Source: a virus
Reading direction: 5' to 3' (one strand)
IMG/VR virus record: IMGVR_UViG_3300045988_068405
Coordinates: 1-42,414 of that record
Length of the DNA: 42,414 nucleotides
The notes under the pieces were generated by a model that saw nothing but the letters and a program-made list of their open reading frames with translations, ran no database searches and was not told the origin of the DNA. The translations under genes were made by a program, and so were the position numbers. Positions 120 through 42,414 of this stretch are shown one piece after another; within the stretch, counting starts at the first letter, position 1; each line of letters begins with the position of its first letter.

Positions 120-154
120 AAGGACTTTTTTGAGTCCCTGCTTTCTTTTTTTTA
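118..154. terminator. Bidirectional intrinsic terminator after repressor 1
   Basis: Stem 118-126/133-141 (9 bp, one A.C mismatch), loop tttttg. It is flanked by an A-run (111-117) and a T-run (142-154). It lies immediately 3' of the minus-strand gene ending at 152. Confidence 0.7.
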
Positions 155-547
155 CTTTTCTTTTTTGCTTATCGCAGCATTGAGCTTCCTGATCATGTCC
201 AACACGGCTTGCATTTGGGTTTCATCCAGCTGCAAAAGATACTTGTTAAGCTCTATCAGAAAGTTATAAGTCTCTGGATCAGTTTCTTCTTTGTGAAAAA
301 GCTGTGTTGTGATAGCAGCTATTTCAGCTTGCTTTGTCATAGGAGCTTTCATTTCTCCTTCGCCAGTGCGTAGCCAAGCCTCGTTGATTTGAAATTCTCG
401 ACATATAGCAGAAATGATAGCATTTGAAGGTTTCCGTGAATTAGATTCATAATTAGTGATTGTATTACCTCGTACACCCAATTTTTCTCCGAATTCATTT
501 TGTGTAAGCCCCAGTGACTTTCTTACCTCTTTGATTCTTTCATTCAT
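152..547 (-). CDS. CI-like repressor, XRE-family HTH (repressor 1)
   Basis: 131 aa. N-terminal HTH 'LGLTQNEFGEKLGVRGNTITNYESNSRKPS' followed by 'EAWLRTGEGEM'. RBS AAGGAGG upstream. Transcribed divergently from the early operon. Confidence 0.85.
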   Translation of the reverse strand: MNERIKEVRKSLGLTQNEFGEKLGVRGNTITNYESNSRKPSNAIISAICREFQINEAWLRTGEGEMKAPMTKQAEIAAITTQLFHKEETDPETYNFLIELNKYLLQLDETQMQAVLDMIRKLNAAISKKEK

Positions 548-8985: not shown

Positions 8986-9106
8986 TAACGTTTAACCCCC
9001 TCGTAGATGCCTTTTAAAGCAATTTGAGGTTTTGGGTGATAACTTATAGCCTAAAGCACATCAAAAAGCTAAAAGGCATTGCAGAGGGGCAAGAAAGGAG
9101 CAAAGA

Positions 9107-38107: not shown

Positions 38108-38219
38108 GAGATAGAAATCTCATTCATGCTTGCAAAGGCATGTGGATTGAAAAAAAACTGAAGACAATAAGTCTAAAGAGAAAGCGGTGGAAATTCCACC
38201 GCCTTTTCTTTGTTTTTTA
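38108..38219 (+). ncRNA. Candidate small RNA (about 105-110 nt)
   Basis: Lies between the predicted promoter and the 38184-38219 terminator. Internal hairpins TGAGAT-AGAA-ATCTCA and CATGC-N8-GCATG. The longest ATG ORF is 11 codons, with no RBS. Confidence 0.4.
38184..38219. terminator. Bidirectional intrinsic terminator
   Basis: Stem GCGGTGG/CCACCGC (38184-38190/38196-38202), loop AAATT. CTTTTCTTTGTTTTTT follows on the + strand and TTTCTCTTT on the - strand. It also ends the minus-strand operon (stop at 38222). Confidence 0.8.
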
Positions 38220-38221
38220 CC

Positions 38222-38794
38222 TTAATCCCAAATGTGCGATCTGCAAGCCTCATCCCATTCTTCCTCCATTTCACGGAGTACAAGGGCAGGTTCTTCACCG
38301 TTGATGATTCTTTCCTTTGCTTTCCTTCCTGCGGATGCCTTTTCAAAATTTGCAGCGTATGCCCAAGCATCAGCCTTGATGTAAGCGGCGGCACGTGGGT
38401 ATTTTTCCGACATAGCCTTTAAATCATAGTTCGGTTTTGATCTAACCCCTAATCCGCCTACATCATCAAATGACTTTTCAAATTCTTTGTGCCAGCTTGC
38501 GAGATCAGCTCTGGCAGCTTTCAATTCCTTGAGTCCTTCGATTGCATCAATTTTTGCCTGTCGCTCCTCTGCGGCTTTGATTTCTGTGTTGCGGCGGTCA
38601 ACCAGATAATTGTATATTTCTGGTTGACGTGCTCTGATAATTTCCATAGCATTGTCGCCCTTGAGCTTTCTGGTTTCCAGAGCATAGATTGCGCCTGTTA
38701 GTACCTCTTTTCCATTCTTGTATTCAGTTTTCAACCCGATATCATATCGCTTAATTAGTGCTGCGATAGATGCGTTCTGTGCGTCAAATTTCAT
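38222..38794 (-). CDS. Hypothetical protein (190 aa), last gene of the minus-strand accessory operon
   Basis: Start at the internal Met 'MKFDAQNAS' with AAAGGAGGAAT upstream. Helical and charged. Ends '...EEWDEACRSHIWD'. Confidence 0.65.
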   Translation of the reverse strand: MKFDAQNASIAALIKRYDIGLKTEYKNGKEVLTGAIYALETRKLKGDNAMEIIRARQPEIYNYLVDRRNTEIKAAEERQAKIDAIEGLKELKAARADLASWHKEFEKSFDDVGGLGVRSKPNYDLKAMSEKYPRAAAYIKADAWAYAANFEKASAGRKAKERIINGEEPALVLREMEEEWDEACRSHIWD

Positions 38795-39023
38795 TTTGTG
38801 ATTCCTCCTTTTTGATTTTCTCAAGCCCGTACAGCTCATATAAATATTCACTGACTTTTGCATGTTCTTTTTGTGGCTTATAGTAGCGCACTGGTATCAA
38901 ATCTTTTTCAGTGATCTTCCGAGTTCCCCCATACATGCTAAACATTTTAAATGAGCCGTCTTCCAATTCTACGATGTAGTGGCGCGGCAGGAGTGGGGTT
39001 TCATATAATTGCTTTACTTTCAT
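38784..39023 (-). CDS. Hypothetical protein (79 aa)
   Basis: RBS AAGGAAGGAG upstream. Overlaps the downstream start by 11 nt. Confidence 0.6.
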   Translation of the reverse strand: MKVKQLYETPLLPRHYIVELEDGSFKMFSMYGGTRKITEKDLIPVRYYKPQKEHAKVSEYLYELYGLEKIKKEESQNEI

Positions 39024-39046
39024 TTCTTTACTCCTTCCTTTTACAG

Positions 39047-39283
39047 TTAGCTTTCACTCAGCAATTTTTCAATTTCAGCTAAGCGTTTCAGCAACTTTTC
39101 TTTTTCCATTTCAAGTGTCTGAAAATCTTCTTTTACCATTCGTTCCAGTGCCAATCTAAAATAAATTGGGCACTTATTTACTCCCAGTTCCCAGTTCTGG
39201 AGTGTGCGCTTGGGGATTGAGTATAAATCCCCAAACTTTTGTTGGTTTAATCCAGTCAGCTCTCGAAGCTCCTTAACTTCCAT
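39047..39283 (-). CDS. XRE-family HTH regulator with coiled-coil tail
   Basis: 78 aa; 'LRELTGLNQQKFGDLYSIPKRTLQNWELG'. Confidence 0.75.
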   Translation of the reverse strand: MEVKELRELTGLNQQKFGDLYSIPKRTLQNWELGVNKCPIYFRLALERMVKEDFQTLEMEKEKLLKRLAEIEKLLSES

Positions 39284-39289
39284 CTTGTT

Positions 39290-39625
39290 TTAGTTCCTTT
39301 CCTTTTTCTGCCGCCAATTGTAAATTATCTTTGCGTTCTTGGAATAATGTTGACCATACTCAGGTCTTTCTCTTGGAAGATATGCACGGACACTTGATAA
39401 GCTTAACTTTACTGCCTTGGAAATATCTTCAACCCCCACCCCTTGACTATACAATTCAAGAATTTTTGCATGTGCTGCATTTAATACATATCCATGAGTG
39501 GCTAGACACTTGGTTATTTTGTGATGAGAACAACCAGTTTGAATTGAAATAGGCTTAACTGCTCCATACTGCTTCCACAAATCAATTATAGCTTTGTCTG
39601 TCTTGCTGATTTGATCATCCATCAT
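39290..39625 (-). CDS. HTH-containing protein (111 aa)
   Basis: 'VEDISKAVKLSLSSVRAYL' is a sigma-r4/resolvase-type HTH. A second helical unit reads 'SIQTGCSHHKITKCLATHG'. ATGA coupling to the upstream gene. Confidence 0.6.
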   Translation of the reverse strand: MMDDQISKTDKAIIDLWKQYGAVKPISIQTGCSHHKITKCLATHGYVLNAAHAKILELYSQGVGVEDISKAVKLSLSSVRAYLPRERPEYGQHYSKNAKIIYNWRQKKERN

Positions 39626-39852
39626 TGTTCCTCTCTACACTCGGCACTATAGATAAGTTCCATATCTTTTCCCGCTTCGATATAGGAGTTGTAATCTGTC
39701 AGCTCACAATATGTTATTTCACCACTTACAGCATTAAACCATGCCTCCACATAGCCGTTATATGTTGCTTTCTTTGCCATTGCTCTTGCATGTGCTGCAA
39801 TTCTGCCTTTGTCTGTCGTACTAAGCACGAATCTATTATTTTCTCTCTTCAT
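39622..39852 (-). CDS. Hypothetical protein (76 aa), first gene of the accessory operon
   Basis: AAGG of the RBS lies 9 nt upstream of the ATG. No recognisable family. Confidence 0.6.
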   Translation of the reverse strand: MKRENNRFVLSTTDKGRIAAHARAMAKKATYNGYVEAWFNAVSGEITYCELTDYNSYIEAGKDMELIYSAECREEQ

Positions 39853-39901
39853 TTTCCTTTACCTTACTACCTTTGGTAGCTCCTTTCTTTGTTATGACTA
39901 T

Positions 39902-39930
39902 AATATAGCACCGATTCGGTACTTTGTAAA
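39902..39930 (-). promoter_or_regulatory. Promoter of the minus-strand accessory operon
   Basis: Minus strand reads TTTACA (39925-39930), a 17-nt spacer, TGc and TATATT (39902-39907). Confidence 0.65.
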
Positions 39931-39954
39931 GTATATATTTGCACTAAATCGGTG
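39909..39954. promoter_or_regulatory. Operator-like repeats around that promoter
   Basis: Perfect palindrome ACCGAtTCGGT (39910-39920) inside the -35/-10 spacer. An extra half-site AATCGGTG (39947-39954) is the reverse complement of CACCGATT (39909-39916). Confidence 0.5.
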
Positions 39955-39980
39955 TTTTTATTGATATTATTTAACTTTTT

Positions 39981-40022
39981 GCTATTATGTTACTATTACA
40001 TCTGGCAAGGTGACATAATAGC
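39981..40022. repeat. 42-bp imperfect inverted repeat next to the integrase gene (attP candidate)
   Basis: GCTATTATGTTAC (39981-39993), 16-nt spacer, GTGACATAATAGC (40010-40022). Arms match at 12/13. No T-run on either side, so it is not a typical terminator. Located 19 nt from the integrase stop. Confidence 0.45.
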
Positions 40023-40040
40023 AACAGAAAGGATAAAAAA

Positions 40041-41411
40041 TTATATAAAAAACACCTTAGACACCTTCTTGCCATCAATCTCAATGCGCCTGATGGTACG
40101 ATGCCAGAAATCACGCTTTCCATCCTTGGATAATTGCCAGTACATTTCTTCCCAATCGTCAGGCAGCTGCTTGATTGGGCTGAGTGGGACTCTCTGGCTT
40201 TCAAGCTCTGCCATATCTGCCTTGAGCTGTGACGTCTTTTCTACATACTCAGCACGCCCCATATCTCCATCAAGGTATACGTCTTTCAGCCGTTGGAGCT
40301 TGCCCTTGATGCGGCTGATTTCCTTTTCTGCATCCTTAGCCTTTTCTTGGCTTTGTGCAATACTTGCCTCGTAGTCCGTGATCAACTCGGACATATGCTC
40401 GATTAAGTAATCTTCCAGTTTGTGTTCCATCACAAAGGCAGGCTTCTCACAAATGTCCTTTCTCCTAACCTTTGTGCAGCATTGGTAGTACCCTCTCTCA
40501 ATTGTCTCCCCATTTGCCCTGATGTGCTTGGATAGCTTCGAACACATCCGCGCTCCACAACTGGCGCAGAAGATCACCCCTGTAAAGATATATACTCTAT
40601 CATCTTTTGGCGTGCGTGGATAGTGGACTCTAGCTTGCTCTATGATCTTGTGTTGCTCTGGTGTGATGTATGCAGGCACATCAACCCCGTAGTACGTGCC
40701 GTAGTACGGCTCTTTGTCTAGGATGAAATGAGCGGTTTTGCGTGACATGCGCAGACCTAACTTCCGTGCAGCGTCCATGGCTGCTACTGGGCTGTAAGTG
40801 TCAAGGTAGGTATTAAAAAACGCTTGCATAGCATCCTTAGTGGCAGGATCATAGTCAATGGTACTGGAGGATGTCCTTATGTACCCTAGCGGCATCCTGC
40901 CTGCTATGATGTGCCCATGCTCCCTTTTGTACTCCAGTACAGCTTTGATACGTTCTGACGTGCGGTCGGACTCTGCCTGAGCCACCGACAGCATGATATT
41001 TACTTTAAAAACTCCTGCCGAAGTCTCCGTTTCGTAATCCTCCCAAATCGCCCTCCATGGCACTTTTGCACCATCTAACACCTGCTGTACTGCATAGTAG
41101 TCGGCAACAGAGCGAAACCATCTGTCTAACTTTGTAAAAAGAATAATATCAATTTTATGCTTTTTGCAATCTTCTAGCAATTGCAATAATGCAGGACGTG
41201 ATTTGTATTTCTTTCTCGCACTGATTCCTGCATCGTTGTAGATACCTGCGATTGAAAAACCGCGTTCCTGGCAATAGTTCTTTAATGCGTCTAACTGGTT
41301 ATCCACTGATAATCCGTGTTCCTTCTGTTCTGCGGTTGATACGCGTACGTATATAGCCGCCCTTTTCTGCCCTTCCTTATCTAACCTTTTCTGTTCTTCC
41401 TTTTCTGCCAT
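40041..41411 (-). CDS. int: Large serine recombinase (integrase)
   Basis: 456 aa from Met 'MAEKEEQ' (RBS AAGGAAGG). Resolvase catalytic domain 'AAIYVRVSTAEQKEHGLSVDNQ', recombinase domain, zinc ribbon 'CASCGARM...YYQC', and a coiled-coil C-terminus. Confidence 0.9.
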   Translation of the reverse strand: MAEKEEQKRLDKEGQKRAAIYVRVSTAEQKEHGLSVDNQLDALKNYCQERGFSIAGIYNDAGISARKKYKSRPALLQLLEDCKKHKIDIILFTKLDRWFRSVADYYAVQQVLDGAKVPWRAIWEDYETETSAGVFKVNIMLSVAQAESDRTSERIKAVLEYKREHGHIIAGRMPLGYIRTSSSTIDYDPATKDAMQAFFNTYLDTYSPVAAMDAARKLGLRMSRKTAHFILDKEPYYGTYYGVDVPAYITPEQHKIIEQARVHYPRTPKDDRVYIFTGVIFCASCGARMCSKLSKHIRANGETIERGYYQCCTKVRRKDICEKPAFVMEHKLEDYLIEHMSELITDYEASIAQSQEKAKDAEKEISRIKGKLQRLKDVYLDGDMGRAEYVEKTSQLKADMAELESQRVPLSPIKQLPDDWEEMYWQLSKDGKRDFWHRTIRRIEIDGKKVSKVFFI

Positions 41412-41532: not shown

Positions 41533-41664
41533 ATGGACAGAAAGGAGCTTATAAAAAAGATATCTGACCTGCTGCAAACCTTTGATCTTGTTACCCTGTT
41601 AGCCATTTACCGCACACTAAAACGTGTACAGAAAGGAGCTGTAAATGAAAAAGATGCTGATTAA
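41533..41664 (+). CDS. Small protein (43 aa), paralog 1; divergent from int (RDF or regulator candidate)
   Basis: ATG 41533 lies 7 nt after AAGGAGGTG. Sequence MDRKELIKKISDLLQTFDLVTLLAIYRTLKRVQKGAVNEKDAD. Confidence 0.55.
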   Translation: MDRKELIKKISDLLQTFDLVTLLAIYRTLKRVQKGAVNEKDAD

Positions 41665-41740
41665 GAAAATAACTGATATGTTGCAAACACAAAGTGAAGA
41701 TGTGCTACTGCTGATCTATGAAATTTTGCTTAGGATGTAA
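41645..41740 (+). CDS. Small protein (31 aa), paralog 2 (not in ORF track)
   Basis: Hand translation MKKMLIKKITDMLQTQSEDVLLLIYEILLRM. Shares 'LIKKI(S/T)D(L/M)LQT...LL.IY..L.R' with paralog 1. Overlaps paralog 1 by 20 nt and the repressor-2 3' end by 11 nt. Confidence 0.4.
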   Translation: MKKMLIKKITDMLQTQSEDVLLLIYEILLRM

Positions 41741-42119
41741 CTTGTTTGAGTGCTTTGAGATTATTTAGTATGTCCCCAAAGACCTCTGCTTGATCTTCCG
41801 AGAGCTGCAAAACATACTGTACAGCCTCGATTGAAACTTGATAACGCTTTGAGTCCGCATTGAGTTGACGGAGTTGGCTTGCGATATTGGAGATTTCTGC
41901 GCATGATGCAACCTGCATTTCGCCTTTTCCAGTCCGCAACCACTCCTCTCTGATGCTGAATCTCTCGCAGATCAGCGTGATACTCTGCGTGCTTGGCTTG
42001 CTTTTTCCACTGCACATGTTGGATACTGCCGACTCCGAAATTTGCAAAGTTCGTGCCAATCCTGCCTGTTTCATTCCCTTCATTTTCAGTATCTGCAAAA
42101 TTCTATCACCGATTTCCAT
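41730..42119 (-). CDS. CI-like repressor paralog, XRE-family HTH (repressor 2)
   Basis: 129 aa. HTH 'MKQAGLARTLQISESAVSNMCSGKSKPS', then 'EEWLRTGKGEM'. The C-terminal 'YVLQLSEDQAEVF' parallels repressor 1 'YLLQLDETQMQAV'. RBS GGGAGGTG. Confidence 0.85.
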   Translation of the reverse strand: MEIGDRILQILKMKGMKQAGLARTLQISESAVSNMCSGKSKPSTQSITLICERFSIREEWLRTGKGEMQVASCAEISNIASQLRQLNADSKRYQVSIEAVQYVLQLSEDQAEVFGDILNNLKALKQVTS

Positions 42120-42272: not shown

Positions 42273-42302
42273 CCCCTCGTGCCGAAAGGTAAACACGAGG
42301 GG
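42273..42302. repeat. Perfect 9-bp inverted repeat CCCCTCGTG-N12-CACGAGGGG
   Basis: Read directly from the sequence. The terminal repeat begins inside its right arm (42296). Confidence 0.85.
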
Positions 42303-42414
42303 CAGACAGAAAGGATAAAGGTACTCATTTGTGAATATCCCACATCAGAGAAAGGTGTAAAAGATGTGCGAATCCTTTACAGCCCTAACTATAAGGGCGA
42401 TGAATAAAAAAAGC
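42296..42414. repeat. Terminal direct repeat, copy 2 (identical to 1-119)
   Basis: 119/119 identity with the window start. Confidence 0.95.
42334..42361 (-). promoter_or_regulatory. Candidate minus-strand promoter (also present as 39-66)
   Basis: Minus strand reads TTTACA (42356-42361), a 16-nt spacer, TGg and GATATT (42334-42339). Confidence 0.35.

Follow-up and report, generated by a model that had tools for sequence, protein, structure and literature searches.

The gene cassette and its promoter

The window analysed here, the whole 42,414-nucleotide stretch of IMG/VR virus record IMGVR_UViG_3300045988_068405, is a circular temperate phage genome, and the subject of this work is a five-gene operon (g1 to g5) on its minus strand. 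The operon lies downstream of the integrase gene, between the lysis genes and the phage attachment site attP. The genome carries an exact 119-bp terminal direct repeat (positions 1-119 equal 42296-42414) and has a circular length of about 42,295 bp; in relatives, the sequence of position 42414 joins that of position 1. The predicted host group is the gut Lachnospiraceae. We consider the operon to be probably a self-contained, negatively autoregulated accessory-gene cassette of the acr-aca (anti-CRISPR and anti-CRISPR-associated) type, whose cargo may interfere with host functions. Its features, in the order of transcription, are as follows.

39942-39954, not strand-specific: operator O2, an imperfect 13-bp palindrome, CACTAAaTCGGTG (plus strand), within two mismatches of CACCGANTCGGTG
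39925-39930, minus strand: -35 hexamer TTTACA from the promoter scan, invariant in all relatives
39909-39921, not strand-specific: operator O1, a 13-bp palindrome, CACCGAtTCGGTA (plus strand), filling the -35/-10 spacer and covering the TG of the extended -10
39902-39907, minus strand: -10 hexamer TATATT from the promoter scan, with TGc before it (extended -10)
39622-39852, minus strand: g1, 76 amino acids (aa), a small soluble protein treated as cargo; no family matches
39290-39625, minus strand: g2, 111 aa, basic (isoelectric point, pI, 9.6), with a weak resolvase/homeodomain-type helix-turn-helix (HTH); a predicted DNA binder at the level of cargo
39047-39283, minus strand: g3, 78 aa, with an XRE-type HTH (residues 1-55) and a C-terminal coiled-coil-like, heptad-rich tail
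38784-39023, minus strand: g4, 79 aa, a small beta-plus-helix protein treated as cargo; no family matches
38222-38794, minus strand: g5, 190 aa, an N-terminal beta hairpin and a helical bundle; treated as cargo
38183-38202, minus strand: intrinsic terminator, a GC-rich hairpin followed by a T-rich tail

All five open reading frames (ORFs) described by the first-pass annotation, a model's reading of the letters, are present and tightly packed. From g1 to g5 they are spaced by a 4-nt overlap, a 6-nt gap, a 23-nt gap and an 11-nt overlap, with good ribosome-binding sites across the operon. The 190-aa length of g5 and its HIWD ending were borne out, as this start has an AGGAGG ribosome-binding site and fits the homologue alignment; the 213-aa ORF of the mechanical list begins upstream of it. 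The reported promoter, TTTACA-17-TATATT with a TG before the -10, was located at 39930-39902 on the minus strand. Such promoter-like matches alone are weak evidence (19 across the window, against 10.8 expected in shuffles); the cassette promoter is conserved in all relatives.

A palindrome filling the promoter spacer, ACCGATTCGGT at 39910-39920, had also been reported, and it is unique in the window. What had been described as an extra half-site upstream of the -35 is in fact the second, imperfect 13-bp operator at 39942-39954. O2 lies upstream of O1 at a centre-to-centre distance of 33 bp, and the two are the sole sites within two mismatches of CACCGANTCGGTG in the 42-kb window. O2 is conserved in relatives, where a C-to-T change within it (L003-L006) parallels the same change in the O1 arm. 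Like acr-aca operons, the cassette has an inverted repeat in its core promoter and a second repeat nearby, both conserved in relatives. In the 5′ untranslated region, a hairpin at 39867-39879 (CTACC-AAA-GGTAG) stands just before the g1 ribosome-binding site and is largely conserved in relatives.

Exchange of cargo around a constant predicted regulator and operator

Across close relatives the promoter, both operators and approximately the first 55 residues of g3 are constant, and g3 is the sole gene retained in every sister-phage variant. In L003 and L004 (5158-5505), g1 has been deleted between two SKTDK-coding stretches and its start is fused to g2. In L007 and L008 (L007 4165-5505), g1 and g2 give way to a very acidic protein of 136 aa (pI 4.1, charge -20) and a 308-aa DNA binder of the zinc-ribbon/AP2 type; the charge of the 136-aa alternative cargo is suggestive of a DNA mimic. 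Despite this swap the L007 promoter is unchanged, a comparison that rests on L007 as the L008 contig ends before the promoter region. L122 (3688-4371) keeps g1-g2-g3 and carries a 227-aa gene in place of g4 and g5, while in L123 and L124 (L123 78-786) g4 and g5 are absent and nothing follows g3. This pattern indicates that g1, g2, g4 and g5 are most likely swappable cargo.

The HTH calls for g2 and g3 made in the first-pass annotation are weak but real. In Pfam, g2 matches HTH_23 (E=3e-4) and g3 matches HTH_3 (E=5e-4); g3 also matches phrog_2104 in PHROGs and XRE-type structures in the PDB. As in acr-aca operons, the operon encodes a predicted HTH regulator, g3; g2 is a second HTH protein. The same annotation took the layout for that of an autorepressed promoter and proposed that both HTH proteins bind it. 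The layout is supported, and the repressor role falls to one protein: g3 is the likely repressor, whereas g2 behaves as cargo, since an AP2-type binder replaces it in L007 while promoter and operator are unchanged. Homologues of g2 are restricted to this phage group, and a sequence search of the PDB with g2 gave no match.

The pairing of operator and HTH extends to the unrelated phages L126, L127 and L162, which have an O1-type palindrome at the same spacer position of a TTGACA promoter. The palindrome is perfect in each, reading ACACCGA-N-TCGGTGT in L126 and L127 and CACCGA-N-TCGGTG in L162. The last gene of these cassettes ends in an HTH about 50% identical to g3 with a conserved recognition region, the g3 motif RTLQNWELGVN being invariant in L126 and L127 and RTLQNWELGVS in L162. 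These g3-like proteins are 122-124 aa long, with an extra N-terminal domain. Their cargo is unrelated to that of the window, comprising proteins of 117 aa and 82 aa in L126 (2455-3653) and L127 (2468-3653), and an 85-aa protein, a J-domain protein and DUF3560 in L162 (1070-3159). All three cassettes lie on the opposite strand, between a putative terminase small subunit gene, so labelled from the look of its sequence with no match in Pfam, and a 135-aa gene.

Among the fetched loci, the operator pattern occurs exactly once per locus in 27, all from phages encoding a g3-type HTH, and in none of the remaining 100. At least seven cargo sets are already linked to this HTH and operator. The co-inheritance of recognition helix and operator across differing cargo is the strongest evidence that g3 is the autorepressor, and we conclude that g3 most likely binds the operators and represses the cassette promoter. 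The acr-aca-like architecture proposed earlier, with a promoter, small uncharacterised genes and an HTH gene, is supported by stronger evidence than was then at hand, as the operator and the g3-type HTH stay associated when the cargo is exchanged.

The exchange of cargo also bears on two other explanations. The first-pass annotation had raised a toxin-antitoxin-like system, which here would be a type II addiction module in which g4 or g5 encodes the toxin and g3 the antitoxin. By sequence search, the nearest PDB entries to g3 are generic XRE proteins and HigA-2 antitoxins, toxin-antitoxin operons are likewise autorepressed through promoter palindromes, and g3, g4 and g5 are tightly packed. Yet g4 and g5 are absent or replaced in L122-L124 while g3 stays, homologues of g4 and g5 occur elsewhere with no g3-like neighbour, and neither protein matches a toxin family or fold in Pfam, NCBIfam, PADLOC or a Foldseek search of the PDB. 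The supposed toxin and antitoxin are not inherited together, and we regard an addiction module as exceedingly unlikely. A similarly slight probability attaches to the idea that the five belong to the ordinary core of phage genes, with roles in replication or lysis-lysogeny regulation, and are on the minus strand by chance. Although two HTH proteins adjoin the lysogeny module, gene content varies among near-identical phages, the only homology of the cassette genes to replication or regulatory families lies in generic HTH domains, and canonical repressors are encoded elsewhere, at 41730-42119 and 152-547.

For the autoregulated accessory cassette, we propose the following mechanism. On DNA entry or in the prophage, host sigma-A RNA polymerase would fire the near-consensus extended -10 promoter, and g1-g5 would be transcribed to the terminator at 38183-38202. 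The g3 product, probably dimerising through its C-terminal coiled-coil tail, would bind the O1 palindrome in the spacer, covering the TG element, and would also occupy the weaker O2, three helical turns upstream, so that the promoter is shut off. The expected outcome is that cargo expression peaks briefly when the DNA enters the cell and settles at a low level in the lysogen, with g1, g2, g4 and g5 acting on host targets and anti-defence as the leading candidate for that action. The autoregulated part of this scheme appears highly probable. We hold an anti-defence role for the cargo more tentatively, as a possibility that falls short of even.

Families and neighbourhoods of the cargo

Comparison of the five proteins with Pfam, PHROGs, NCBIfam and PADLOC returned only weak HTH matches, and no enzyme domain was detected in any of the products, all of which are small and soluble. 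The first-pass statement that no component matches a nameable defence family agrees with the PADLOC scan, which gave only weak matches for g2 (E=0.003 and 0.02) and none for g1, g3, g4 or g5. No membrane anchor, signal peptide, lipobox or hydrophobic segment, as in superinfection-exclusion proteins of the Sie/Ltp type, was found in any of the five proteins, the maximum Kyte-Doolittle value over 19-residue windows being at most 0.73. As all five are soluble, an exclusion system of the classical membrane type is unsupported.

The g1 family has 19 representatives of about 75 aa each, none of them annotated. The g4 protein has only six homologue clusters, and its AlphaFold2 model is moderately confident (predicted local distance difference test, pLDDT, 81.5), with nothing in the PDB at E<=0.001 by Foldseek. 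Homologues of g4 stand alone near AcrVA2-like, RadC and PAPS-reductase genes, and no linkage to g3 or g5 was found in these distant loci.

The g5 family is far larger, with at least 223 homologues at E<=0.01 and a near-invariant C-terminal H-x-W-D. Its AlphaFold2 model is confident (pLDDT 94.9); no PDB match was found by profile sequence search, Foldseek returned nothing from the PDB at E<=0.001, and BFVD held only an uncharacterised relative. A per-member Pfam scan of 46 homologues gave no consistent or common family. By tblastn, g5 matched one unannotated phage record and 0 plasmids, and the GTDB representative genomes contain no close relative. In other mobile elements, homologues of g5 are found one at a time, within long arrays of small uncharacterised genes that share a strand. 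One such array belongs to an integrative element with DUF3560, DUF6900, a weak ArdC-N match, Bro/ANT proteins and a tyrosine integrase; a second lies on a 218-kb phage-like contig, where the g5 homologue adjoins an LPD29/J-domain protein; in a third the neighbours are DUF5983 and DUF8359. No linkage to g1-g4 was found in these loci. The neighbourhoods of the g4 and g5 homologues are of the kind in which anti-defence and establishment genes of mobile elements usually occur, which is suggestive of a related role here. We found no functional literature on DUF3560 in our search. As a family that is widespread in gut mobile elements and has a confident model with no fold relative, g5 is a good target for structural and functional work.

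Several observations weigh against reading the operon as an acr-aca-type cassette. The g3 gene sits in the middle of the operon, whereas the regulator is terminal in classical acr-aca operons. No match to a known Acr, Aca or anti-defence family was found in Pfam, PHROGs, NCBIfam, PADLOC or the PDB, or, for g5, in BFVD, and g3 has no similarity at E<=10 to the solved Aca1, Aca2 and AcrIIA1 chains in the PDB. In addition, the size and conservation of g5, with its 223 homologues and near-invariant terminal residues, would be unusual in an inhibitor, and this conservation could indicate a housekeeping role in mobile elements. The association with accessory arrays is itself weak evidence.

On balance, the cassette appears to work like an acr-aca operon and to be a known kind of system with uncharacterised cargo. 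We do not file it as acr-aca, because defence inhibition is a candidate activity of the cargo and g3 was not matched to a named Aca family. It is possible, though we have more doubt than confidence in it, that the g3-type HTH and the CACCGA-N-TCGGTG operator form an undescribed Aca-like anchor of Lachnospiraceae phages whose cargo founds new anti-defence or host-takeover families. Candidate founders would be g1, g4, the new-fold g5, the acidic 136-aa protein, the 227-aa, 117-aa and 82-aa proteins and DUF3560. To our knowledge, almost no anti-defence or accessory genes are known in gut Lachnospiraceae phages. If g3 is indeed Aca-like, its HTH and operator would provide a searchable anchor for such genes.

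The attachment site and integration into spo0A

The first-pass annotation described the cassette as the only multi-gene block opposed to the main transcription direction. This does not hold, as the lysogeny genes, a serine integrase and two XRE repressors, share the minus strand. The features of this region are listed below.

39979-40024, not strand-specific: attP of the large serine integrase, a 46-bp inverted repeat, 93% complementary, between the integrase stop codon and the cassette promoter
40041-41411, minus strand: large serine integrase, with Resolvase (E=2e-32) and Zn_ribbon_recom domains
41730-42119, minus strand: XRE repressor, canonical
152-547, minus strand: XRE repressor, canonical, across the circular junction

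In the attP repeat, inverted arms of 15 nt (39979-39993 and 40010-40024) enclose a centre of 16 nt, which varies among relatives, whereas the arms are conserved. A search for exact matches to the g4 protein retrieved seven free-phage contigs and three integrated prophages (L018, L019 and L022). In the three prophages host genes directly abut the operon promoter, and phage homology ends at the centre of the inverted repeat (around 9000-9030, the attL junction), which identifies the repeat as attP. The attL junctions of L018, L019 and L022 and the empty attB sites of L034 and L050 fit a serine-integrase attP with imperfect dyad symmetry around a central crossover. The host DNA beside the prophage matches Anthropogastromicrobium aceti (Lachnospiraceae) at 99% identity, and the genome of this species carries the site unoccupied. 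In L034 (2020-2844), the gene that contains attB, at Ser247, encodes 274 aa. Its Response_reg and Spo0A_C domains (E=1e-44) and its neighbours, spoIVB on one side and a glycogen-synthase-like gene on the other, identify it as spo0A, the gene for the master regulator of sporulation.

As attP separates the operon from the integrase gene, the two come to lie at opposite prophage ends in the lysogen. In the reconstructed lysogen the cassette, with its promoter and operators, is at one prophage edge and the integrase is at the other. The earlier description of a cassette beside the integrase with its own promoter and terminator accordingly stands for the promoter and terminator; the adjacency exists only in the free phage, where attP intervenes. 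The contig L007 (IMGVR_UViG_3300045988_078977), a 120-kb viral contig, has the free int-attP-operon arrangement and may represent a concatemer or misassembly instead of an integrated prophage.

Under conservative serine recombination, the junction on the integrase side should encode a Spo0A that ends in ...YTINSGKVT* and has lost its last 25 residues, GKPTNSEFVALIADKIRLELNLFKS. At the other junction is a 3′ remnant of spo0A that points away from the operon and has no in-frame start. The lost segment appears to include the residue that, on comparison by eye, is equivalent to Bacillus subtilis A257. Mutation of A257 in B. subtilis Spo0A is reported to abolish sporulation-gene activation (PMC9195935).

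The centre of attP varies together with the host gene. The attP core is CT in L017, L002-L005 and L007 and GA in the window, L001 and L006 (minus-strand notation), and spo0A has two attB alleles that differ by a synonymous switch of the Ser codon, AGC in L034 (~2758) and TCC in L050 (~2761). The CT and GA cores match the two attB versions, which places the inferred crossover dinucleotide at 40001-40002 (TC on the plus strand, GA on the minus strand), the exact centre of symmetry. This match suggests either host escape followed by phage tracking or strain-specific targeting. No attR junction pattern was found in genome, viral or metagenome contigs, and exact-protein look-ups with the repressor and integrase of the window returned only free-phage contigs, with no attR. 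Our literature search found no paper on phage integration into spo0A. Within its scope, neither this integration nor the correspondence of the attP core with a host codon switch seems to have been described. They may be a more surprising result than the cassette itself, and they bear on phage control of dormancy and transmission in spore-forming gut commensals.

The position beside attP invites a regulatory or excision module, in which the operon would supply a directionality factor for the serine integrase, an anti-repressor like that of P22 immI (arc-ant) or a modulator linked to spo0A. The cassette immediately adjoins attP, it encodes two predicted DNA-binding proteins, and spo0A is the insertion site of the phage. 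Serine-integrase directionality factors are reported to be small proteins without a shared fold (PMC11795197). However, g1, g2, g4 and g5 are each dispensable in some sister phage with the same integrase type and attP. Some elements that encode homologues of g4 and g5 have tyrosine integrases, and another is a large phage whose fetched locus shows no lysogeny genes. The O1 operator has no further copy in the genome, and the cassette promoter has no convincing Spo0A box. We judge such a module improbable. More doubtful still is the narrower idea that the cassette, at the prophage edge beside the severed spo0A 3′ end, modulates the Spo0A pathway in lysogens.

Two further observations concern spo0A. 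Residues 2-18 of g1 (KRENNRFVLSTTDKGRI, window 39807-39849) share 41% identity over 17 residues with Spo0A residues 251-267 (KPTNSEFVALIADKIRL), within the tail that integration removes. The match has E=0.27 in a search against a single sequence, and the g1 family consensus retains only part of it; we judged it to be probably due to chance. Similarity between g1-g5 and Spo0A is otherwise negligible. Separately, a promoter-like sequence, TTGATA-16-TGcTATTAT, at 39961-39988 on the plus strand points outward through attP with its -10 inside an attP arm. In the lysogen, transcription from it would enter what remains of the spo0A 3′ end and the glycogen-synthase gene. This site is doubtful, as a 6-8-nt indel breaks its spacing in several relatives.

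The edge position also brings in a lysogenic-conversion or protection gene set (a moron), expressed at a low level from the prophage, whose soluble cargo would act through superinfection immunity, small-protein defence or a change in host physiology. The site between the lysis genes and attP is a classic one for morons, the operon runs opposite to the late genes from a promoter of its own to its own terminator, it lies at the prophage edge in lysogens, and autorepression would yield steady low expression. On the other hand, PADLOC gave no significant matches and the proteins have none of the membrane or lipoprotein features of known exclusion proteins. Prophage protection is not an obvious function for the g5 homologues of long accessory arrays and of a 218-kb phage that appears to be lytic, and the L126 and L162 cassettes adjoin the putative terminase small subunit gene (no Pfam match) rather than a prophage edge. 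We consider a moron unlikely, although the least so of the alternatives weighed here, and favour the autoregulated cassette of acr-aca type with exchangeable cargo.

Transcriptional context and other features of the genome

Scans for hairpins and terminators found no terminator-like hairpin between the integrase gene and the cassette promoter. In the circular phage, read-through from int may therefore reach the cassette, which would be impossible in the prophage. No operator is common to the cassette and the immunity region; a ribosome-binding-site-like 10-mer is the only element found in both. The cassette locus had no DNA match in the phage collection searched.

This 10-mer, ACAGAAAGGA, has seven copies in the window (0.22 expected), all on the plus strand and confined to the lysogeny and early region, at positions 11, 676, 1871, 40024, 41537, 41628 and 42306. 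Several copies resemble ribosome-binding sites, and the copy at 40024 adjoins attP and is not followed by an ORF. A copy precedes each of two paralogous small ORFs of 43 and 31 aa (41533-41664 and 41645-41740, plus strand), which lie antisense between repressor and integrase and share the motif K-x-L-I-K-K-I-x-D-x-L-Q-T. Downstream of the lysis genes, the plus-strand segment 35984-37285 holds two odd ORFs, one of 291 aa that is rich in Gly, Asn, Gln and Cys and has one hydrophobic segment, and a Cys-rich one of 139 aa.

Comparison with known systems

Published Aca families have one inverted repeat inside the core promoter and often a second nearby, and the cassette resembles the Aca1 and Aca2 operons and the AcrIIA1 loci of Listeria in its predicted strong promoter, its core-promoter inverted repeat, its second repeat and its operon-encoded HTH (PMC9410906). 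At the level of DNA its layout agrees with theirs in each feature. It further resembles them in its small, unrelated and often exchanged cargo and in its orientation, opposed to the neighbouring phage genes. The AcrIIA1-regulated loci of Listeria prophages lie near the lysin and the prophage end. The cassette differs from these systems in that its cargo has no likeness to known Acr proteins and g3 has no detectable similarity to the solved Aca and AcrIIA1 chains. Moreover, g3 is internal rather than last, and a second predicted DNA binder, g2, lies within the cargo.

With morons and the secondary immunity region of P22 (arc-ant), the cassette shares an autonomous unit that runs from promoter to terminator and is late or att-proximal. 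As in arc-ant, a small operon-encoded repressor is predicted, in g3, to act on its own promoter. Unlike P22 arc-ant, the cassette encodes no Ant/Bro-type anti-repressor domain, and g3 is an XRE HTH protein rather than a ribbon-helix-helix protein. Its cargo families, in contrast to both morons and arc-ant, are common to unrelated mobile elements.

Type II toxin-antitoxin systems such as HigBA and MqsRA offer a likeness in the small XRE-type HTH protein, of HigA2/MqsA flavour, and in autoregulation through a palindrome, which is predicted here. The difference is that g3 has no cognate partner, as its neighbours change freely and show no toxin fold.

Prophage elements are known in sporulation genes, with skin in sigK, SPbeta in spsM and the yin element in yabG (PMC5025042, PMC10747680). 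These resemble the present phage in context only, as serine-integrase prophages inside a sporulation gene. The target here differs in being spo0A, the initiator of sporulation, rather than a late gene of the mother cell.

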